This document shows, one piece after another, positions 5,551-36,800 of a DNA stretch of 64,000 bases. Below the pieces are notes generated by a model. The model was given only the letters and a program-made list of their open reading frames with translations, ran no database searches and had not been told where the DNA came from. The stretch spans positions 1 to 64,000 of the forward strand of contig KZ538254.1 of assembly GCA_000934665.2 (NCBI GenBank), in the 5' to 3' direction. Within the stretch, counting starts at the first letter, position 1, and each line of letters begins with the position of its first letter. The stretch is from Catajapyx aquilonaris. Taxonomy: Eukaryota. The translations under genes were made by a program, and so were the position numbers.

Positions 5551-15309
<9,759 letters not shown>

Positions 15310-16512: not shown

Positions 16513-16783
16513 TGCCGATCTCAACTGCCTAGGGGCAGCCGAGGGGTCTCCGCCCATCGATACTGACCTTCCTTGTTCCTTGAGTGGGAGCACGAGTGGG
16601 AGACAAAGTCCAACCAACACCGGGGCAGGATTAATTATTAAGGGAAAAGTATGCTGGATAAAAAAACGTTTCTTTAATAATTCAAAATGGGGGCTGAATA
16701 TAAAAATACAGCTTGAGATCATAGGGGTGTTAGTACAGTGGCGGTGGTGGTGCTTCCGCCTCCTCTTCTGCGATCAACTGCAG

Positions 16784-18904
16784 TCAACTGCAGTCACTCT
16801 CTGCATCGCTGAATTGGCCCTCCTCACACGCCACCTCTGCACCCACCGTATTGCACACCACAGCACTCTCACTCTTCCCTCGCTCATTCACTGAAATCAT
16901 ATCCCAGCCCAATGATTGTGATATACAAAGTGGAAACAATACAACTGGCAGTGCACCTTCCACCGCGGTACTCACACGTGGGATCGAAATCATCTTCTGA
17001 ATCCCACGCAGCTTCTGGCTCTGCTGCAGGACCTGATTCAATGCCTCGGTCAACACTACAGGACAATATTAACCACAATTACATTGTGAAGCTGCTTTAC
17101 GCTTCATGCACCCAGCACTTGATGAACTTGCCTGAACTGATCTGATCTCTCCTCACTGCTGCATGACTCACTATCTTCTTCTCTCTCGTCCCCTGTAAAT
17201 GAAGGAATGGGTGGCATTGCAAAGGAAGAGCCTCATTATTGACATTCACACTGCCTACACCCACCTGACTCGTCTGATTCCACCGGCGGGACATCAATAC
17301 GCTCGCAGTCCCCAAGAGACTGGCGCAAGGCATCCCGCATCTCCTTGTACCTCTCAAAGTCCTCTGGCTCCACCTGAAAGTACAGCGCACATGACATGAC
17401 CCTTTGACTATAATATCTAACGAGCCTCCTCATTCCAAAGCAGGCATTGCCACTCACCGAATCCGGGCATTTGGTCAGGTCGACTTTGTTGCCTCCCATG
17501 TCAAAGGCCTTCATCCCAACCATTCGCACCATCTCCGTCTGGAATAAAGTGAGCTGGTTGTTGTGCAGATCCAAGTAGCACAATTTATCCATGTCCACCA
17601 TAGACTTTGGCATGCTGCTTATCTGAAAGCAAAAGCCAGAATTAATAAGTAACAACACTAGCAAAATACTCCTAATAACAGCATGAACACGAGGCTCATT
17701 TAAACACAGCAGGCACAGAGGAATGGGCACTCACCAAGTTGTTGCTCAGGTCAAGCCAGGTGAGCTGGGTCAGACCTTGCATGGCTTCAGGCAGGAAGAT
17801 GAGCTCATTGTCCCTCAGGCTGCACCACCTCAACTCCTTGGCCTTGCAAAAGGCGTCAGGAAGCATGGAAATGCAATTCCGGCTGAGGTCCAGCACCTCC
17901 AGGTGGGCCAGCTGAAGGAGCCAGTCCGAAATGCAGCCCAGGCCAACCCCAGGCATGTGGAGCTCCCTCAGGAGGGTCATGTTGGCAATCTCTGCGGGAA
18001 CCTCCACAATCACGTTCTGCAGGGATGTCCGCAGGCAGTCGCCATCGTTACCAATGTGCAAGACCTCCACAACAGAGTAACCTTCGCAGGCTTTCCATTT
18101 GGGCCAGTGGACCACCCCGCAGCTCTTCATTTCCAGATGCTTCAAGGAAATCCAACGTTTCATTAGGTCTCCAAAGTCAATCCGGAAGTCCAACCTGTTG
18201 TAGCTGAGGGCAGGGAATAAAACGATCCTCTTAGAAGATCACGGTACAGGCATTCCCCATTTTCATAGGAACACGAATAAATTGACCCAACTGGTATCAG
18301 CAAATATTGCTTCACATCCAAATGACAAACATGAAATTATTATTATTATTATTATAGATCATTATTATGCGGACCTGAGGACAAGCTTTCCGACCCTGCG
18401 CAGGTGAGAGAACCACCAGGGAAGAGTGCACAGCAGATTGGAGCTGAGGTCAAGGTGGCAGAGGGAGAGGCAGCTCTGGAAGTGGTCGGGTAGGGACGGG
18501 ATGGAGTTGTGGGAGGCGTCCAGACGGCAGAGGCCCTTGAGGCCGGAGAGGCAGTGGAGGGTGGTCAGCTGGTTGCGCGAGACGTCCAGGGCCTTGAGGG
18601 AAGGCATGGCGGCAATGGCTTCTTCTGGCAGTGCAGCCAGGCCGCGGCCGGACAGGTCCAGCTCCGTCAGGTTGGCATTGAGCAGGGCTTGGGGCACGGA
18701 GGGCGACGAGGGCACAGCTGCAGCTTGGGACTGGTCATCAGCATCAGGTGGTGATGATGATGGCGGCTCACCACCCTGGCCACAATAAGGTCCACTCCCT
18801 GCTGAAATGTGTGCAGGTTATTGCGTTGAGAGCAGCCGAGGAAGAGCGTTTTTCATGGCGCAGCTCGTCTTACACCCACCTGCTGCAGGAGGGACCCGAA
18901 CCAT
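16784..18904 (-). CDS. Leucine-rich repeat protein, about 480 aa, with acidic C-terminal tail; 8 coding exons
   Basis: Exons 18904-18880, 18801-18375, 18203-17735, 17622-17458, 17373-17265, 17192-17132, 17055-16976 and 16890-16784; phases consistent, total 1443 nt. Repeated LxxLxLxxN motifs (LTELDLSGRGL, LKALDVSRNQL, LCRLDASHNSI, LCHLDLSSNLL, LEVLDLSRNCI, LTWLDLSNNL, LCYLDLHNNQL). Intron 17056-17131 is GC-AG. The first exon and start codon are less certain. Confidence 0.85.
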
Positions 18905-19923: not shown

Positions 19924-20254
19924 GGGGAGACGGAGTGGCGCCGCGGTAACGCGCGCGCCCACGGAAGTTAAGGTCCCGGGTTCAATCCCCACCCGGGGTT
20001 CCCACCTTCTTTCGTGCAGAGTTGGGCCATCTCTGGCTTCGTTTCGGGTGGCAATTTCCGGCAGACTAAGCCACCCGGGGGAGTTCACAAAATGACGATT
20101 AGAGACATTGCACTTGCACTTTGCACATCCCCTCCCACCCACCCTTGGAGCATACTAATTAAGATTCTTCTTAAACTCGCTCCAAAAACAATTCCAAAGG
20201 TGGCAACCCACCCCCCCTAAGGAGTAGTATAACTCCCCCCGTGGGGTAATGAAA

Positions 20255-20311
<57 letters not shown>
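19924..20311 (+). mobile_element. tRNA-derived SINE with a (TA)n tail and TSD
   Basis: A-box-like TGGCGCCGCGGT (19936-19947), B-box GGTTCAATCCC (19979-19989), core shared with 13188-13258, a 3' stem-loop, then (TA)n at about 20258-20319. Direct repeat ATATATATTATCATATT at 19905-19921 and 20312-20328. Confidence 0.82.
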
Positions 20312-20322
<11 letters not shown>

Positions 20323-21170: not shown

Positions 21171-24100
21171 TCAATGCGGATCACTGCTGCCTGACTTATT
21201 GTCATTCTCTGTGGTACCAGAAGGACTGTTATCTCCATTTTCACGTGATGGTGCTGCTGGTGATGGATGATGCAAACTGGCAAATGCTTCTTTAAGCTCC
21301 TCCTGCAAGAGGTGGTGGCTGTGGGCCAGCTTGTCCCTGTCCTCCCCTGGAGGTGTGGTGCTGGGCCCCACCGCAGGAACCATCCCCTTTGCCTGCTGGC
21401 TCCCTAGTGACGGGTGACTGTCATAGCCAGGCATGTCTTCCGGAGAAGTGTCAGCAACAGAGCGAGCTTGGGGTCTCTGCGGCAGCCCTGACGTCGTTGC
21501 CCTCTGAGAGACACTGGCTGGCTGGCTCTGCTGAAGATCCTCCTCCCCTTGGAACCGGTCTGCTGATGAAGAGGCATCGTGCCATTCGATAGGGGAATTG
21601 TATTCTTCCCTCTGCAGAAGCGTTGGCCTTGCTTCCCGTTGCTGAAGATCCTCCTCCCCTTGGAACTGGCCGACTGATGAATAGGCATCGTGCCATTCAA
21701 TAGGGGAATGGTATTCTTCCCTCCGCAAAAGCGTTGGCCTTGCTTCCCGTTGCTGAAGATCCCCCTCCCTTTGGAACTGGTCGGCTGATGAAGAGGCATC
21801 GTGCCATTCGTCGATAGGGGAACGGTATTCTTGATCCCTCTCCAGAAGCGTTTGCCTTGGTTCCCGTTGGCCTGGGTGTCGGGCACTCCACCTCAAATTG
21901 TGCCTGACTAATTCTTCATCAAATAAATCCACCCTCCCGTGCCTGTGCCTCCTACCATTCCCTTCATGACTGTCATGACCGGGGTGGCTTTCCTTGACCT
22001 CTGCAGCCCCAGGGTCATCCTCACTGAGCTTCCCATAATCATACTGGCTAGCCCAGTCACTGTCATTCGCACTTCCATCAGATGGTCGTCTGGCATGATC
22101 ACGTCCGCTGCTCCTTCCATGAGCACCCTCACCTCCATGAGCACCCTCGCCTCCATGAGCACCCTCACCTCCATGAGCGTGCTCACCTCCATGAGCATGC
22201 TCACCTCCATGAGAAACATCTTGTTTCTTGGATCCATTGGTGGTTCCTGCATGATTCACTCCGACTCCCTCATTCCTTCGTCCAACATTAGCAATGTGTC
22301 TTTCCAATCTTTCAACGAGATCTCGAACCAGATTTTGACGAGAAATTTGCTGGCTGTCTTCCACTTTGTGCTGGCCGCTGCTTGCCTTGTGTTCATGCTC
22401 GGCGCTGCTTTCCTTATTGTGTTCATGCTCGCCGCTGCTTGCCTTGTGTTCATGGTGGCCGCTGCTTGCCTTCTGTTCATGCTCATGTCCAGCAGAGCTG
22501 TGATTCTCATCATCCTTGTGCATGGGATATTGGCCATCCTCCCCTAACCCTCGTCCGCCATAATCCCTTGCCCCCCTTCGTGGCACATCCTGCCTTCCTG
22601 TGCCACGATGCTGACCCCGTCGAGCCCCTCTTTTTCTCAACTCCAAATCACTCTCTCCACTGGATGCTGGACTAGACAGGCTACTTTGGCTACTCAAGCC
22701 ACTCCCGCCTTCTTCCTCGTCATGATGGGGTCTTCTGCTCCTGATTTGTCCACGCCTCCTCCTGAGATAGCGATTCGTTTTTGGATTAGATTCACTAGCG
22801 ATATGACTCGAAGTATTGCACTGAACGGAAGGACCTGCCTGGTTTTCATCATCCTTCTTGCCTGTCACATTTGGCTTAGTTCTCTGACTTGTCTGGCGGC
22901 TCTCTTCCCCACCATCTCCTTCTGGGTGACCCCTAGACCGCCTCTGCTTTTCACTTGCCTTCCTGTGCACTTCTCCACGACCAGAATCCACTCCTGCAGC
23001 ACTGCCTCTATCAGGACTGCTGTCATCCTTGGAGGAAGACTCCATCCCTGTCAACTTCGTGCCGCCTGACTTCCCCCTCTTCATCCTACGACTCCTGAGT
23101 TTCATGAGTGGATCATCTCCTAATGAATCCTTCCTGACGGTGCCACCTGAATGGCTTGTCTCTCCCTCAGTTTTCTTCTCCAACCTGTCACCCGCCTCGG
23201 GGGAAGACTCCATCCCACTTAGTATTGTGCCGCTTGATTTCCTCCTCTCCATCTGACGTCTCTTGAGTTCACTGAGCGGATCGTCATCTGGTGAATCCCT
23301 CCGGAATGTGCCATCTGAAGGGCTTTTCTCACCTTGGGTTTTCTTCTCCAACCTGTCACCTGCCTTTATAGGGGGAGACTCCATCCCTGTCGTACTGCTT
23401 GATTTCCTCCTCTTTATCCGACTACTCTTGAGTTCGCTGAATGGCTCATCTCCTGGTGAATCCCTCTGGGATATGTCAGACTCACTGGCAGAAGAGCTAC
23501 TAGTCCACAAAGTGTGACTGTGAGGACGACTCCGAGTCTGTACTTCACTTCTCTTCTTCGCGCTCTGTGTAGAAGGAATCTCTGTTGGCCTGGCGCTACG
23601 TGACTTTCCCAATTCCCTCAGATATTTGTGTCTTGATGCAACCCTCTGTTGTACGACGCCTTCATCGCTTGAGCTCGAAGAGAGATCATGAGACTGCCTG
23701 GTGAGATTCTCCCCATTGCTTTCCTCTTCTGGGAGCAATGCAGTCGTGCTTGAATTTTTCCTTCTTATGCGGCTAATTCTCCGGTGTTCCAGAGGCTCAT
23801 CATCTATTGAATCCTTCCGATCTGCAGAAGTGCCACTTGCCATGAAAGTGGGATCATGAGACCGCCGGACATGGCTTTCTTTGTGAGTCTCCTTCGGACT
23901 GCTGCTCTTCTTGGGTGAAGATTTAGGCTCTCTCGTCTCAACCTGACTTTTTGCCAGTTCACTCAAACGTTTGTCCCCTGATGAAGCCCTCCTAACATTG
24001 CTACTCATCTTCCATTGATTGATGAGGTCAGTGTCGCTATGCATCCCTTCATCCTCTATGCTCCTCAAGGCTTTGCCAGACCTTGACTTTGGGCTGCCAA

Positions 24101-27100
24101 TACCTCTTTCCAGCGGCTTCTTATCGTCACCTCTGCCTTCGCGCGACATGGATGCAGCCACCTCCTCCACTATTTGCCTTGCCTTCCCCAAGTTGAACAA
24201 GCACTCTGCTTCTTGCTTCCTGAGGTGGAGCAGAACCTGCCTTGCCAAGTGCACTTGGCTCTTGTCCTCTCCACTCAAGGGTCTGCCTGGCCTCAGCTTC
24301 TGCATGCGCTCTTCCAGGTCCTTCAGCCTCTTCTCCTCCTCAAATATGACACGTAGACAGTGCACCACGCTGCTGTCTTTGTTCACCAGGGCCTTCAAGC
24401 TCTCGTCTGATGGGGACGTTGCAGAGGACTCGAGACCTTCATACACAGGGTGAAGCACAACCTCGTCTCTGGCTTCATCTTCAGCCCCTAGCTCTCCTAA
24501 GCATTTGAGGATTTTCTCCTCTTGTATCCTTCGGGACACTCCTTCCGAGTGCATCAGCCTGTCTATTTCCGTCAGCCTCAAGAGGATGGAAGCCCTGCTC
24601 TCCTGCAGCTTGACCTCATCCTGGCCACCACCTCCACCACCACGATCGTATCGCAACTGGGCAATGCTGCCTTCCAGCACCCTCAGCCGACGCTCCTCCT
24701 CCTCCCTCAGCTGGGCCAGCTGCTCCTCCAGCGCCTTCAGCCTGTCTTCCTCCGACCCTTGCTGGAAGGCCTCTTCCTCCAGCCTGCTCTTCCTCCTCTC
24801 CTGCAGCCTCTGCAGCCTCTTCTCCTCGTCCTCCTTCAGCCTCCTCAGGCTCTCCTCCAGTATCCTCATGCGAGTCATCTCCGCTGTCTGGCCTCCCAAA
24901 CTCTCCATCTTCCTCAGGCACTCCTCCTCCTCCTGCTCCCTCCTCATCCTCTCCTCCTCCAGCCTGCTCAACCTCTCCTCTTCCTCTTCCTTGAACTTGT
25001 GAAGTCGCTCCTCCAGCCTGCTCAGGTGCTCCTCCTCCTCTTCCATCCTCCGCTTCTCCCTCTCCGCCAAGCTCTTCCGTACAAGCTGCTCCTCCTTCAG
25101 AAGCCTCTGCTCCTTCTCTTCCAGTTTCTTCCTGCGAGACTCCTGAAACATGTGGAGCTCCTCTTCCTCCTCCTGCCTCCGCCTCTCGTCATCCTCCTGA
25201 CTCAGCCTCCTCCGCTCCCCCTGGATCAGGGACAGCTCCTCTTCCTCCCGCATGCTCTTCCTCCTCCTCCTCCTCCTCCACTTCTCCTTCTCCAGCGTCA
25301 GGATGGAGTCCCTCGTCTCCAGCTTCTCAGACGGAGAGGAGGCCTCCAAGAGGGGGCCAGCTGCCCTGAAATTGTCATCCAGGCACTGGAGGATCCTCTG
25401 CTTCTGCTTCAGCTTGCTCAGGCGGTCCTCTTCCTCCGCAGCTGCCTCCAATTTTCTCAGGTTCTCACTCTCCAGCCTTCTAACGTACTCAGACTCCATC
25501 TCCAGCTTGAACAAGCGGTCCGCTTTGGTGCCTGTCTCAGTCTCACTGGGAGGATGAGGCGATTTCTCCTGCGCACTTAGCAATTGTCTTTGGCTTGGCT
25601 GCTCAACTGGGCTTTCGGACGCTTTATCTGACTTTTTAGACTTTTTCCTCTCGTCCAGTATTCTTAGTGAATCTACATGACCCAATGATTTGGAACCCTT
25701 GTACCGTCGTTGCCCTTCCGTTGGTGCCAGGGGTGCCTGAGACAACCACAGCTCTACATCCTCTTCATATCGCAGCTGGAGTCTGTCCAGCTCGGAAAGA
25801 CAAGCAGTGGTCGACAACAGTTTCTCAGAACCTTCTTCCAAGTCTCTTATTCGTCCTGGGCGGGGTGAGACTGGAGGAGTTATACCCCTGGAATGTAACA
25901 TGGTCAGGTGATGTCAGACATGTCCTGATATTCAGCAGTGATGAAAATAAGTAATATCAATTAATAAGCTGCAGTTAAATTGGAGACAGGAAACATATTT
26001 TAGCTGAAAAAGTAACGCGAAAGTTGACGGCAGTGAAACATTATTCTGCTTGCCCCATCACTTTTCCAGTTTTAGAAGAAAAAAAATAGCTTCCTGGAAT
26101 CTAGGTCTAAACACTTCAAAATCAGCACTGCTGAGCTCACTCTTCTTCCGAGAAATCGGATTCGTCTCCATACTCCAGAGGATTTTTGCAACTGGTGCAC
26201 ATGTTTTCCAGCTCCGTAAAGCATGGCCTGCAGTACACGACCTTGCAATACGGAACGGGGCAGATGAAGAACCCTTTCTCATCACTCGCTTCGCCTGCCG
26301 TGCCACACACCAAGCAGTACTGTTCGTCAGGCAGGAGTCGGCTCAGGCACCTCCCAACAATGGGGATCCTGCAACACAGAAAAATGAGGAAGCCGCATTT
26401 CTGGTGATCACGTCCGTATTCAGAGAGAGACATCTTAGAGAGAAGGCCGAGATCCTTACACCCAAATGACGGCATGCGTACCTCTGAAGACAGTGCCTGT
26501 TAATGACCTTGAAGGTGGGAGATGATGCTTCACCCTTGGTCCGCTCCCTGATCTTCCTGCGGGCATTTTTGAGGAAGCCAGACCTGGTGGCCAGGATCCG
26601 GTTGAGCAGCCAGGCCGCCCTGAGTTTCTTTGTCTCAGGGTAGTACCACCCGCAGATCAGGTGGCGCATCCTGAGTACGTAGGAGCCGAATATCACCATC
26701 ACAAAGCTAACCAGGAGGAGCAGGCCTGCAAAGGAGATGTCAAGCATGCAATAAGTGATAGGTAACCAAAGAGAACCATGCACATCACCTTGTTGCACAA
26801 CTTGTTACAATTTTTGCTGTATAGGTTTACCATTAAACACACAACTGGCCTTAAATCAAAGACAAACATAATTATTATAATAACTGATTAGCAGATAAGC
26901 CTAATTGATAAAGTCCCTTTCACATCCCCAACTATATACCAATGTGTGTCATCCTGGCAAGGTCTGGAGGCCGTGGTGCAGGAAGGCAAGGGGTCGTGTC
27001 CAGGACGACTGGAGTCCCCCTCAAAGGATCCATGGTCTTGATGATGCTCCTATACACATCGGCCAGAGCACCATGGCCTTCCACGTGGGTTGAAACTCGC

Positions 27101-29336
27101 CCAGGAGCTTAAAAGTCAAATTAGGATGAGGCTCAGCCTTTGAAAAGTCCCACAAAAAATTAATCTTATTATTTTACAGCTGGTGGCTGTAGGACAGCAA
27201 TCAGCTTCTTGGTAGTCTGCAATATAAGGAAAGTCCGCAACCTCATGGAACAATAAGTCATTTTTGGCCCAGCTCATGCGAGCTGCAGCGACCAATGATC
27301 ACCTTTTTTTTTTTTCTTCTTCCAATGCAGTGCATTCCTGCCCATAATGTCACTCACCCTCAATTTTGACTGTGTAGTGACCATGTGCCTTCATCATTTC
27401 CAGAAGCCAGAAGAGGGTGTAATCTGTGGCCAGGTAAAAGCTAACTTGGACCACGCTCAGGAGCAACATGAACATCCCAAAGGCCAACGACTTTCTCTCC
27501 TTCCTCACCATTCGAAGAGAAGAGTTCTGTGAAAGGAAAAGGACGAGGTCGAGTGAGGGGGGCAAGGAAGCCATGAAAAGTACGCAGCTCCGTGCTTCAG
27601 CTCCCCCAATCGCATTACCCGAATGTACTTCTTCTTTTCCCACTTCCTGAGGGGAAGCACGGATTCTTTCCCCTTATACTTCAGCTGCAGGTCCATCTCG
27701 AGAAGCTCCTCTGACAGGTAGTAGTTGTCAAACTCGTTGCGTGCAATGTACTTCCTCCGATACACAATGGCCCTAATAAATATTGCAAGTCCAACCAGGA
27801 GACATACATGCAACATAGTGCGTTGAAAATACTCACTTGAGAAAAACCATAAGGAAGAGGACGGCAAGAGCACTGTTGATGAGGTCAAAAACCATGGATA
27901 TGTCCTTAACCTTTTCGTGGATCTCATCCATAATGTCTTCCTGCACTTCCTCGTAGGTTTTATTCTGGGTCACATTGTGCGAACTGACGTGCTTGAAGTG
28001 AAGCTGCATGTCAAACACCGACTTGGTGTATTCCACATAATGCTGGATGCCTAAGAAGACCCCCAGTAAGATGCATGCATAACCAACCCAAGCTTAATGT
28101 GATGGTCCCACTGCCTGCTGAAGGACTTACTCTCTCTAATGATTCCGACTATTTTGCTCTTGAGGAAGGAGGGTAAGGTGCAGAAGAAGTCGAGGACCTT
28201 GGCTACCTGGCAGACCTCCCTGACTACTTTCACTGCCAGGCACACGGTGCCCACCACGGGGCCCAGCTTCTTCTTGCAGTCGTCAAGCGCCGGCTGGAAA
28301 GAATTCCAACACCTGTGGTATGGCGTCCCCATGTCCTCATTGCACACGTCCACAACTCCACGCAGCCAGCCAAACGCACTCTCAATCGCATCGGCTGCAA
28401 CGAATGGGCCCGCTCCACACTTTAGAAATGGCCCAGTTGTTGGAGATGCCACCTCATCAGTGGCATATGCAACTGTGATGCGAACAGCTGGATTGAAAAT
28501 CATGGAGCATAACATACCGACTCTCTGAACTTGGGATTTGAGGTTTGCCAGGCGCTCTTGAAGCTTCCTGGCAATGTCATTCAGCTCGCTCTCCAGGTTT
28601 CTGAGCATGTCCTTCATGTTGGCAAGGGGAGCCTTTGCCGCCTGGACCAGGGCGTCCTTTGACTGGGCCAGTACCTGCTGGGTGCACGAGAGGGTTGACG
28701 TCAGGACCTCTGTGTTGTGGAGAACGTTCTTGGCTGGCCCAGACAACACCAGGATGAAAATGTAGGCCAGCAGGATTGCCCGTCCTTTGCCTGTGCAGAA
28801 CTGTGGGAAGGCCAGCAGGAAGATGCACCTGAGGCTGCTGGAGAAGGCCAGGCCAAGGGTCAGGAAGAGGCCCACTCCAGAGCACGCCATGGAAGCCGAC
28901 GTCGAGAGGATTCCCAACTCCAGCACCAAGAAGACGTAAAAAACCAATGTGATCAAGGCGCCAACTGGAAATTCCAAAGAGCATGACAAGGTTTGCTTGC
29001 ACCCCATTTCCCATTTCCAGGACACGACTAGTTCCCTGCACTCACACAAGAATCCCATGAAGGTTGTCAGAAAGTAGAGTCCCCATGCCGATGTGTCCAG
29101 AAAGTAACTCACGCATCGGAGGCTCTTGACTTTCGACGCCAGGTATTTCACACTCCTGATCGCAAATTAATACCTCAAACAACGCAATTATTGCACCATG
29201 ACAGGGTTGGTTACCTTCGACACCATGATTGATCACGTTCCTTCCGTTTAGAATATGCAGCTGCCTTGGCTTCTAGCAGCTTGGGGAATTTCCATCTGAA
29301 GATAAGGAGCCGCCACAGTGAAGACAACAGTGACAT
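21171..29336 (-). CDS. DCST2: DC-STAMP domain-containing protein (DCST2/SPE-42/sneaky family) with C4C4 RING and a ~1570-aa C-terminal extension; about 2278 aa in the long form
   Basis: Exons 29336-29215, 29155-29046, 28964-28518, 28394-28131, 28050-27837, 27772-27619, 27526-27358, 27107-26940, 26725-26482, 26368-26141 and 25887-21171; phases consistent, total 6837 nt. Family motifs RCIFLLAFPQFCTGKGR, LSGPAKN, CNEDMGTPYHRC, YIARNEFDNYY, VLPLRKWE, CLPAPRPPD, LRMRHLICGWYYP, and RING CLVC..CPVPYC..YCRPC..CTSC followed by PLEYGDESDFSEE. The core family call is strong; joining of the last exon and DCST2 versus DCST1 are inferences. Confidence 0.8.
21527..21870 (-). repeat. Coding tandem repeat, 3 x 111 bp (37 aa: QQREARPTLLxREEYxSPIEWHDAxSSxxxFQGEEDL)
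   Basis: gctgaagatc recurs at 21530, 21641 and 21752, exactly 111 bp apart. Confidence 0.9.
22117..22490 (-). repeat. His-rich coding repeats: (HGGE[H/G]A)x5 and HEHKASSG-like x4
   Basis: 18-bp units (ctccatgagc...) at about 22117-22211, and HEHEQKASSGHHEHKASSGEHEHNKESSAEHEHKASSGQH at about 22368-22490. Confidence 0.88.
23030..23470 (-). repeat. Coding tandem repeat of about 55-56 aa (2.6 copies, plus a diverged copy at about 23740-23825)
   Basis: RDSPGDEPFSELK..RRKSS..GMES..AGDRLEKKT / RDSPDDDPLSELK..RRKSS..GMES..AGDRLEKKT / KDSLGDDPLMKL..RGKSG..GMES. Confidence 0.85.
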
Positions 29337-33800: not shown

Positions 33801-36800
33801 GGAGTTGAAAGAATGTAATGGCAACAGAAAAGTGAGGGGAAAAGGGCATACGCTGCAGCCACCTGTGCGCGCAACAACCGTATTCCACCTTGTGTCTGTT
33901 GGCAGGGGAGTTAGTTAGTGACTGGGTGTGAATGGGTTCGTGCAGAGTGAGGTTACCAGCCAAAGGCAAGATGGACTCACGTGGTGGCATCTGAATTGTC
34001 CAGGAACAAATTCTGCTGCCCCCTGTTGTTGACCTCCTGCACTTGGTGGTGGTGGTGGTGGTGGCCGTTCCTCTGCGAGGGGGGCAGGGAAGACAGGTCC
34101 AGGAGGAGGTCCCCACTCCCCCCTCCTCCAACCACTCCCCCCTCCATCAGCACTGACACTCCCTCCCCACCAACACCACCCGCACTGTCACCCATCACAA
34201 TGTCCTCCCCTTGGTCCATGGGGCCACCACTGCCCCTCCCTCCAGAGTCACCTTCTTCCGAGCTGCTGCTCCCTCCACCACCCATTTCCTTGCTGCTTCC
34301 TCCATCCTCGTTACTCTCCTGGAACACACACATGCAATTAAAACTACGCTTAAGCACAGTCATGAGAATTATGACAACACAACTGCCTGATAGTGAACAT
34401 GGACTAGAGAAGTGTGAATCTTGCCATAATTATTAAGAGGTCCATGTCAACAGCCATTTCTTTCTCATTTTCTTTGTTTTTTTCGCAACAAGAAAAAAAT
34501 GCTTCACATAATCACAACTATTTGGCCTCATGCAACATGAGGTCAGATTTTTTAAGTGGCAGGAAGTGACATAATCCATCCATACACCAAGTCACCAGAT
34601 AAGAAAACAACCAAATTTTAGCACCTTTTTTTGCCACTTCCATCATTATCTGTGACGGCCCTGTCCCATTAGGTTTTTTAAAAATAACTTGGGTGTATCT
34701 TACAACTTATCCCCGCTCTATCACTTATTCGTAAGTTCATTTCAAGAATACCACCACTAGGGGCAGTTGCTACCTTGGCAGGAGTGGTGCTGGGAGGGCT
34801 CCGTCCTCCATCTCCTCCTCCGGCAGTCTCCTCATCTCCGGACGTCCCTTCCCCAGGCGTGGTGGCCCCGCCCCCACCTCCGCTGCCTCCTCCCCCGCCC
34901 CCGCTTCCCCCGGCACCCCCCTTCCCGGCCCTGGTCCTGAGCATGATGGCCTCGACCCTCTTCCTCCGCTGCTGCCTCTCCTCCTCCTCCCTGCGCAGCC
35001 TCTCCTCCATCTCCTTCCTCTGCCTCTCCTGCTCCTCCCTGGCCTTCCTCTCCTCCCTCTCTCGCTCCTCCCTCTCCTGCTGCTCCCTCTCCCTCTCCAG
35101 CCTCTCCTCCTCCTCCCGCCTCTCCCTCTCCTCAATGGCCAGCCTCAGACGCTCCTCCTCCTGCCTGCGGGCCTCTGCCTCCAGCCTCAGCTGCTCCTCC
35201 TCCCACCGCTGCGTCTCCTCCTCCTCCCTCCGTTCCCGCTCCTCCTCTTCCCTCTTGCGCTCCTCCTCCTCGCGCCTTCGCTCCTCCTCGCGCCGCTTCT
35301 CCTCTTCCCGTGCCAGCCTCCGCCTCTCAGCCAGGGCAGCCTTTGCCTCCTCCTCTGTCGTTATCCTTCCCCGCATGCTGGCTGTCACTGAAAACAAGCA
35401 TATTTATAACAATTGCCTCCTGCGTCAGACTCCCTCCAATCCATGCACAAGCTGCTACACAGTGCCACGGACACTCGAAAGAGAACACACGAGACATTTG
35501 ACGTTGAAAAAGCACCACAATGCAACGTCATATAACACAAGTGTGTTGCGTTACAAGAAGGCTACTTCAAATCATGATTTCTGCATAAAACAGGTCAATC
35601 CCACAACAACAGGCAAAATGCCAAGAAGTGTGTTGCCCACTTAGGCATTGCCTATTTCATCCTATTTATTGCCTGTACGACAGTGGCATTTAATGGTGCA
35701 AATTAAACAACTTGGGGCTCACTAATTTCAGGTTTCAACTAGCACGGTGGAATAGGGACTCTATTGTCGATATAATTCCTAATTTTTCTTGACGCAAATC
35801 GTGAAATGAGCCATACTTTTACACTACTGGTCTGCAATTCCTCCCTGGCCTGGCCAAATGCACGTGGGAAAAGTGAGCTTACTAAGTCCTTCTGTGTCCT
35901 CAGCTTCTGCATCATCACTGGTCTTCACTGCCTGCAGCAGATCCCCCTCTCCCTTGGCCTCCTCCTGCTGCACCCCCTCCTCCGACTTCTTTTCAGCCTT
36001 CTTCTCGTCTTCTACCGCAACCACCTCTGCCTCGTCTGCAGGAGCTGCTTTTGCTGAAGGCGACGGTGCAGTGGCCTCTGACTCCTCTCCTACTTCCGCC
36101 CCATCCGACGCCACAGGGGGAGGTGGTGGTGGAGATGAAGATGGTACCAGTGCCTTCTCCCCTGCTGGAGACTGGAGTGGAGTGACTTTCGGGGTTGCCT
36201 TTGGAGTGGCCCTTGGGGTTGCTCGAGGAGTCACCCGGGGAGTTGCCTTGGCTGACGGAGGCTAAGAGAAACAAGATCAAATTACAACCCACCATACACC
36301 GAGTTACAAGTGCAGTTCTAATTGAAAATGCTTCTGATCTGCTCCCCGAGGTTTTCAATTCTTCAAATAGTGTTCTGGGTCACCTACAAGAATCGCCTGG
36401 GAGAATTAAACAGTCAATCTAGTGGCACTTTCTGGGATTCTGCCAGAACCCTACTGCATTTGATGATTTCCCCATAACGTGGCTCAATTACTGCCCAAAA
36501 ACAATGCTAATTTCAGTGCCACTGCTGGTTCTGTATGACGGCATTTGATCAAACCTTGGATGTTTTTGGGGTCCTATCTCCTGAAGCACCAACAGCACTG
36601 GCGGCGGCGGCAGCAGCAGCGGCAGGCTTCCTTTGAGAGAGGTCAGGCTTGTTCCCCGGCACTGGTGGCTTCTTGGGTGGCTTCCCAGCTGCAGACCCAG
36701 CAGCAGCAGTGGCGCCCTCCCTATCCCCACTTGACCCAGCACTGCGGGTGCGGTGCAAGGAGCCCTCCGATGCAGCACCACCACCTAAAGACGGGGCAGG

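Follow-up and report, generated by a model that had tools for sequence, protein, structure and literature searches.

A leucine-rich repeat gene of Catajapyx aquilonaris with a near-consensus PRMT5-binding motif in its predicted acidic tail: a candidate PRMT5 adaptor

The leucine-rich repeat gene and its predicted acidic tail

Contig KZ538254.1 of the Catajapyx aquilonaris assembly GCA_000934665.2 was analysed over positions 1 to 64,000 (hereafter the window; all positions are those of this stretch). On its minus strand lies a gene for a leucine-rich repeat (LRR) protein whose predicted C-terminus includes the heptad GQFSDAE, a near match to the PRMT5-binding motif (PBM) GQF[D/E]DA[D/E] of the PRMT5 adaptors pICln, RIOK1 and COPR5. 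The genome is that of an animal with short introns, and the conceptual translation of the gene was made by joining exons A to G (Table 1) by coordinate, with the splice dinucleotides checked by script. All of these exons have AG acceptors, and all donors are GT except that of exon E. The heptad was read directly from the codons GGC CAA TTC AGC GAT GCA GAG, which encode G-Q-F-S-D-A-E, and its coordinates were rechecked by script. Four further codons follow before a TGA at 16786-16784. The same codons, at 16819-16799, had been named in the original prediction, which placed the heptad near the C-terminus and counted six of seven positions as matching, with Ser as the deviating residue; the direct read agrees on each point. 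Translation of this tail, together with an ability to dock on PRMT5, is tentatively the single most likely reading of the locus.

The LRR solenoid of the original prediction was borne out by matches of exons A, B and C to the Pfam family LRR_8. The bit scores were 66.7 for exon A and 49.4 for exon B, above the cut-off of 27, and 20.6 for exon C, under it. A Pfam scan of the pieces of the LRR gene gave no death-domain match. Judging from their sequence, the repeats are of the intracellular 'Ras-group' type. The best solved relatives of the LRR exons, with E values from 1e-15 to 1e-28, were LRRD1 (1e-26 to 1e-27), SHOC2 (4e-21 to 2e-23), Leptospira LRR proteins and RSU1 (1e-15). For exon B, the matches to LRRD1 (1.4e-26) and SHOC2 (4e-21) covered only query residues 44-156. 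The similarity to SHOC2, LRRD1 and RSU1 lies in canonical repeats only, whereas the C. aquilonaris protein would add to its repeats an apparently disordered exon of 1,580 codons and an acidic tail. Orthology to SHOC2 or LRRD1 was considered and rejected, as the similarity is confined to the repeats and is not full-length collinear.

Because its entry is in phase 1, exon A needs an upstream exon; no earlier in-frame ATG was seen in its translation. The open frame of 1,580 codons farther upstream probably serves as the LRR gene's large 5' coding exon. Several phase-1 GT donors lie in it at 21278-21185, and we infer its join to exon A. The translated frame contains 13% E, 12.7% S, 11.5% R and 6.3% K, and it looks like fast-evolving disordered sequence. 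It holds in-frame tandem repeats of 111 nt (three copies), 18 nt (5.4 copies), 27 nt (4.2 copies) and 168 nt (2.6 copies), located at 21529-21869, 22116-22213, 22369-22484 and 23027-23466. One copy of the 111-nt repeat carries an internal GQF (21671-21663). This GQF was rejected as a PBM, since no Asp-Ala follows and the Gly is missing from the other two repeat copies. Also rejected was the idea that the LRR protein is its own RG-rich PRMT5 substrate: the 1,580 residues contain 14 RG and 3 GRG, and simple arithmetic from composition gives expectations of about 14 and about 1, respectively. The intron upstream of exon A is 2.4 kb long. It contains a perfect (AT)31 microsatellite at 20258-20319 and a segment at 19940-20110 that resembles, by eye, a tRNA-derived SINE; ARAGORN found no tRNA gene in the window.

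Beginning with exon D, the predicted protein has a tail of 118 residues with 32% D+E, 14% S and a net charge of -28. This is in keeping with the acidic, probably disordered tail of the original prediction, and no Pfam domain was found in it. Of the two acidic stretches that had been pointed out, the first runs across the junction of exons D and E (17280-17265 plus 17192-17164) and the second lies in exon F (17006-16980). The tail holds six S/T-x-x-D/E sites, one of which includes the Ser of the heptad. The heptad occupies tail positions 108-114, with four residues after it, and would thus stand near the terminus, in a flexible tail and outside Pfam domains, only under a splice model in which exons E, F and G are read in the acidic frame. 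The ATTAAA at 16678 is the sole AATAAA or ATTAAA on the minus strand between 17400 and 16200. A 3' end near 16660 fits, since the next gene, for an ABCC transporter, has its first coding exon beginning near 14676. The intron between exons C and D (17374-17457, 84 nt, minus strand) is in frame and without a stop, as part of an ORF at 17236-17730, and its retention would add 28 residues with no truncation.

Table 1. Features of the LRR gene in the window
Feature	Position	Strand	Description
1580-codon open frame, first ATG 25901-25899	21171..25913	-	repeat-rich; without Pfam family
Exon A	18801-18375	-	Ser/Pro-rich linker and first LRRs; LRR_8 E = 1.5e-18; PDB LRRD1 9.7e-28
Exon B	18203-17735	-	LRRs, including irregular N-terminal half; LRR_8 E = 4e-13
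Exon C	17622-17458	-	last LRRs; LRR_8 E = 3.8e-4; LRR-like 11-mers
Exon D	17373-17265	-	end of folded part and start of acidic tail; without Pfam match
Exon E (61 nt, if GC donor used)	17192-17132	-	donor CAG|gcaagt
Exon F (80 nt)	17055-16976	-	acidic frame holds WDSEDDFDP stretch; +1 frame also open
Exon G, putative last coding exon	16890-16784	-	34 full codons and TGA; phase-1 entry; acceptor gatttcag|TG
GQFSDAE heptad, 6/7 match to GQF[D/E]DA[D/E]	16799..16819	-	direct read
ATTAAA polyadenylation-like signal	16673..16678	-	106 nt past stop

The heptad and the known PRMT5-binding motif

The motif GQF[D/E]DA[D/E] is common to pICln, RIOK1 and COPR5, where it is terminal and outside Pfam domains, and in its strict form it occurs in the human proteome only in these three proteins (10.1101/2020.08.22.256347). 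GQFSDAE misses this strict consensus by the Ser at position 4. An alanine scan of RIOK1 revealed how unevenly the positions contribute. Relative to an IC50 of 6.0 µM for the wild type, Q15A and F16A both exceeded 300 µM, D18A gave 97 µM and G14A 39 µM, whereas D17A (position 4) and D20A (position 7) gave 6.4 µM and 6.2 µM (PMC8252068). The side chain of RIOK1 D17 is solvent-exposed and makes no contacts (PMC8252068). Among the PBM mutants of pICln tested in cells, E231A alone still bound PRMT5 (10.1101/2020.08.22.256347). GQFSDAE has all the experimentally important residues (Gly1, Gln2, Phe3 and Asp5), so that the predicted peptide retains every binding-relevant position and deviates only at the least important one.

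The surroundings of the heptad were also compared with those of the known motif. Two residues before the Gly are required, through their backbone only, and acidic residues past the motif aid binding (PMC8252068). The peptide in the pICln crystal structure stops three residues past the motif (10.1101/2020.08.22.256347). In the LRR protein, Glu-Glu precedes the Gly and Ser-Asp follows the heptad, giving the two or more preceding residues and the acidic context that a PBM requires. From these features, the tail peptide should bind a PRMT5 with a human-type groove. The original prediction had further proposed that docking is gated by phosphorylation of the Ser. This residue does stand in an S-x-x-E (CK2-type) context, yet Ala at position 4 costs no binding, and gating is for that reason unlikely. 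Added negative charge at the Ser, near the lysine-rich groove, might help slightly.

To gauge how often such a match arises, GQFxDA[D/E] was searched as a degenerate DNA pattern, with 100 dinucleotide-preserving shuffles of the window as the control. The pattern occurred once in the 64 kb, counting both strands, and in 0/100 shuffles; by arithmetic, about 1e-3 matches are expected per window. The chance of finding it in the 118-residue tail, at the tail's own composition, is about 2e-5. The match thus appears rare for the window, and the motif alone would prove nothing. Neither GQFxDA[D/E] nor the strict motif nor a looser acidic variant was present in 270 retrieved LRR proteins (389,246 residues). 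In one of these proteins a GQF occurs within the last 60 residues, where its surroundings are Cys-rich. A PDB search with 34 residues of the last exon gave 0 matches at E values up to 10. In the literature searched, which did not include about 1.7 million PMC articles or subscription journals, no PBM was paired with a leucine-rich repeat, in line with the original prediction, which knew of no description of such an architecture. The same literature contained no occurrence of the heptad GQFSDAE, its six-letter stem or two one-residue variants.

Orthologues of the LRR gene were sought by several routes. Exon B, compared with proteins of 274-2000 residues, gave 128 matches, all of them to generic LRR proteins at no more than 47% identity, and no orthologue. 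The 1580-residue open reading frame (ORF) gave 0 matches among proteins of 869-2765 residues, and an Atlas search with its residues 5-215 returned no usable match. When exon B was compared with 1.84 billion representatives, no orthologue was among the 150 matches listed; the best stretch began at query residue 18 or later in 150/150 of these and at residue 41 or later in 148/150. A metagenome scan with exon B found 0 relatives, and one with part of exon A found 43 generic LRR loci (29-53% identity), among which no orthologue turned up. The missing orthologue of a fast-evolving gene is uninformative here, because the neighbouring, conserved ABCC gene has no close listed relative either: its best listed relatives, mostly from arthropods, are 42-50% identical, with a mollusc at 38% and a fish at 39%. 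On these figures the animal is probably not a chordate.

Several points, together with those on splicing given below, weigh against a tail that docks on PRMT5. No orthologue was recovered to show conservation of the motif, and the matches obtained cover canonical repeats only. PBM conservation is documented only across chordates (10.1101/2020.08.22.256347). The protein does not appear from its sequence to be an obvious PRMT5 substrate, as it is not RG-rich. Finally, a scan over very many windows or genomes is expected to yield a few such matches by chance.

It is quite possible that the tail is translated and that the heptad is fortuitous, arising in a polyanionic tail rich in CK2 sites with no involvement of PRMT5. 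The tail would in that case act electrostatically, either binding basic partners or folding back on the LRR surface or on the Arg/Lys-rich N-terminal region, whose R and K content makes it a possible intramolecular partner. PRMT5 would be uninvolved because the PRMT5 or the adaptors of this animal bypass the groove, or because the peptide binds too poorly. The composition of the tail speaks for this explanation, since S, D, A and E, which fill four of the seven motif positions, are common in it. So does the missing orthologue, which leaves selection on the motif without a witness, as do the restriction of documented conservation to chordates and a review according to which such adaptor modules have not been identified in plants, so that the system is not known to be universal. 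In contrast, G-Q-F is not favoured by the composition of the tail (7 G, 3 Q and 4 F in 118 residues), and the only substitution falls at the tolerant position of the alanine scan (PMC8252068). The distance of the heptad from the C-terminus also copies that in pICln and COPR5, and the PBM groove is reported to be more conserved across homologues than PRMT5 as a whole (10.1101/2020.08.22.256347).

Reading frame of the last exons

Whether the heptad is translated depends on how exon E is spliced, and the splice frame is not secure. The acidic frame needs an exon E donor in phase 2, which is either CAG|gcaagt after 17132, a GC donor, or a weak GT after 17168 or 17138. The GC donor has otherwise perfect flanking consensus. 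GC-AG introns make up about 1% or less of animal introns. Exon E also contains two phase-1 GT donors, ATA|gtgagt after 17172 and GCA|gtgagg after 17157, which share the intron-side gtgag core with the donors of exons B, C and F (gtgagt). Splicing from 17172 or 17157 to exon F leads into the other open frame and to a TGA at 16890-16888, which places the motif in the 3' untranslated region (UTR). Splicing from either donor straight to exon G, with exon F skipped, keeps the GQF frame.

To compare the frames, codon log-odds were learned from eight ORFs in the window. The resulting model is small, and because the ORFs used for training also served for testing, in overlapping windows, the following figures are indicative only. 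Exon G scored +3.6 to +8.8 bits in the GQF frame and -10 to -30 bits in the other two frames. Of 6569 presumed non-coding windows of 34 codons, 25.6% were open and 2.1% were both open and scored at least as high as exon G. These codon statistics speak for exon G being translated in the GQF frame. Past 17172, the remaining 13 codons of exon E are likewise open with a positive score, which was matched by 13.8% of 6821 non-coding windows. For exon F, the acidic frame scored -0.6 to +5.9 bits (5.0) and the other frame +7.2 to +12.4 bits (8.2), the range depending on the training set. Exon F thus scores slightly better in the other frame than in the acidic one, and the frame is ambiguous. Among 3485 windows of 26 codons from real exons, the +1 frame was open with at least 8.2 bits in 1.15% and the +2 frame was open with at least 5.0 bits in 0.46%. 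With 1.15% set against 0.46%, exon F does not decide the frame.

An untranslated motif would result if exon E were spliced at 17172 or 17157 to exon F, with the stop at 16890-16888, or, in a variant, if the intron after exon D or exon E were retained, with a stop at about 17236 or about 17104 and GQFSDAE again in the 3' UTR. We consider this explanation unlikely. It draws on the familiar core of the two phase-1 donors, on the open and higher-scoring other frame of exon F and on the need of the acidic reading for a non-GT donor. Against it, three open and positively scoring stretches would have to be coincidence (13.8% for the 3' part of exon E, 0.46% for exon F and 2.1% for exon G), and the acidic, Ser-rich composition is coherent from exon D to exon G. 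An exon of 21 nt, which is unusually small, would also result from splicing at 17172. Weighing these points, we take the motif to be probably translated.

A possible PRMT5 adaptor and its genomic setting

Directly downstream of the LRR gene is a gene for an ABCC/MRP1-type ABC transporter (5551-9279, 11743-12318 and 14578-14676, minus strand), in which a single uninterrupted exon holds about 1,242 codons and encodes the second membrane domain as well as both nucleotide-binding domains. This gene was considered as a local sample of splice sites and rejected, since homology maps only three separated pieces of it in the window, leaving too few introns. Upstream lies a DC-STAMP-domain gene (26137-29166, minus strand), with PF07782 on two exons and a Cys-rich, zinc-ribbon-like exon at its end. 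Only about 235 nt separate its stop at 26139-26137 from the ATG of the large exon of the LRR gene (25901), so that the genes are packed head to tail. A Glu/Arg-rich exon at 34681-35403 (minus strand) matches the MAP7 (E-MAP-115) family (E = 4.5e-19). A frameshifted retroelement fragment lies at 243-817 on the plus strand, where the reverse transcriptase family RVT_1 is matched by two overlapping ORFs that differ in frame. Runs of N around 2100, 29700 and 53100, which are assembly gaps, appear as runs of X in the ORF translations.

Under the preferred reading, in which the tail is translated and docks on PRMT5, the gene would encode a large intracellular scaffold protein. A long, repeat-rich and charged N-terminal region of about 1,570 residues would be followed by about eight or more LRRs of the SHOC2/LRRD1 type and then by the strongly acidic, Ser-rich and flexible tail, with the near-consensus PBM in its last 11 residues. 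Docking would take place in the groove that the TIM barrel of PRMT5 offers to the C-terminal tails of pICln and COPR5. The Phe and Gln would stack into the hydrophobic pocket, the following Asp would face a lysine, and the acidic flanks would lie against the basic groove. A flexible linker would thereby connect the LRR body to the methylosome. PRMT5 adaptors are described as working in this way, as flexible tethers (PMC11847536).

Our tentative grade for this reading is the product of three parts: translation of the motif; a usable groove in the PRMT5 of this animal, which is about as probable as translation; and binding given both, which we judge likely, if a shade less so. Recruitment of substrates for methylation by the LRR domain, which would make the protein a true adaptor, is a step beyond PRMT5 binding and seems quite unlikely at present. 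The most complete proposal, a lineage-specific fourth class of PRMT5 adaptor in which a SHOC2-like LRR solenoid captures clients and an acidic PBM tail tethers them to the methylosome, is correspondingly doubtful. The tethered LRR module of the original prediction is therefore upheld in part: the motif, its C-terminal position, the acidic tail and the LRRs were all found, and the splice frame that would join them is the insecure element. The LRR gene appears to be a reasonable candidate, unproven and cheaply testable.

Among the known adaptors, pICln (CLNS1A) is comparable in layout. As in the predicted LRR protein, the heptad stands a few residues before its C-terminus and belongs to a flexible acidic tail rather than to the folded domain; by this tail pICln is flexibly tethered to the TIM barrel of PRMT5 (PMC11847536). 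The two proteins differ at position 4, which is Ser here and Glu in pICln, and in the folded module, which is an LRR solenoid here and PH-like in pICln. There is also no sequence relationship outside the heptad, and no evidence of Sm-protein binding by the LRR protein. COPR5 shares with the LRR protein a C-terminal PBM (residues 177-183, within the C-terminal fragment 141-184), a Glu two residues before the Gly and a Glu at position 7; immediately before the Gly it has Glu-Thr where the LRR protein has Glu-Glu (PMC8252068). COPR5 is restricted to tetrapods (10.1101/2020.08.22.256347), and PBM-bearing adaptors can thus arise late. It is small, binds histones and has measured PRMT5 binding, whereas the predicted LRR protein would have more than 2,000 residues with LRRs. 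RIOK1 has a heptad of the same class, but at the N-terminus of a RIO kinase and with Val-Pro before the Gly.

Two other LRR systems resemble parts of the proposed arrangement. SHOC2 acts as a scaffold by bringing a partner into position for an enzyme, the same logic as is proposed for the LRR protein. ANP32 proteins have an LRR domain followed by a long acidic tail, an architecture generally like that of the LRR protein, although the type of LRR and the size differ. To our knowledge, ANP32 tails do not carry a PBM.

The practical value of the candidate is limited, as no orthologue is detectable in model organisms; it would say little about human PRMT5 biology or drug design and would mainly throw light on how short docking motifs evolve. 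The known PBM-bearing adaptors number three, and each chooses PRMT5 substrates by a different fold. An LRR-based fourth adaptor, if real, would be a new member of the PBM class and would allow a wider range of substrates to be routed to PRMT5. Such an adaptor would further show that the PBM groove is used well beyond chordates, and that the PBM is a portable docking module that can arise anew on unrelated scaffolds.

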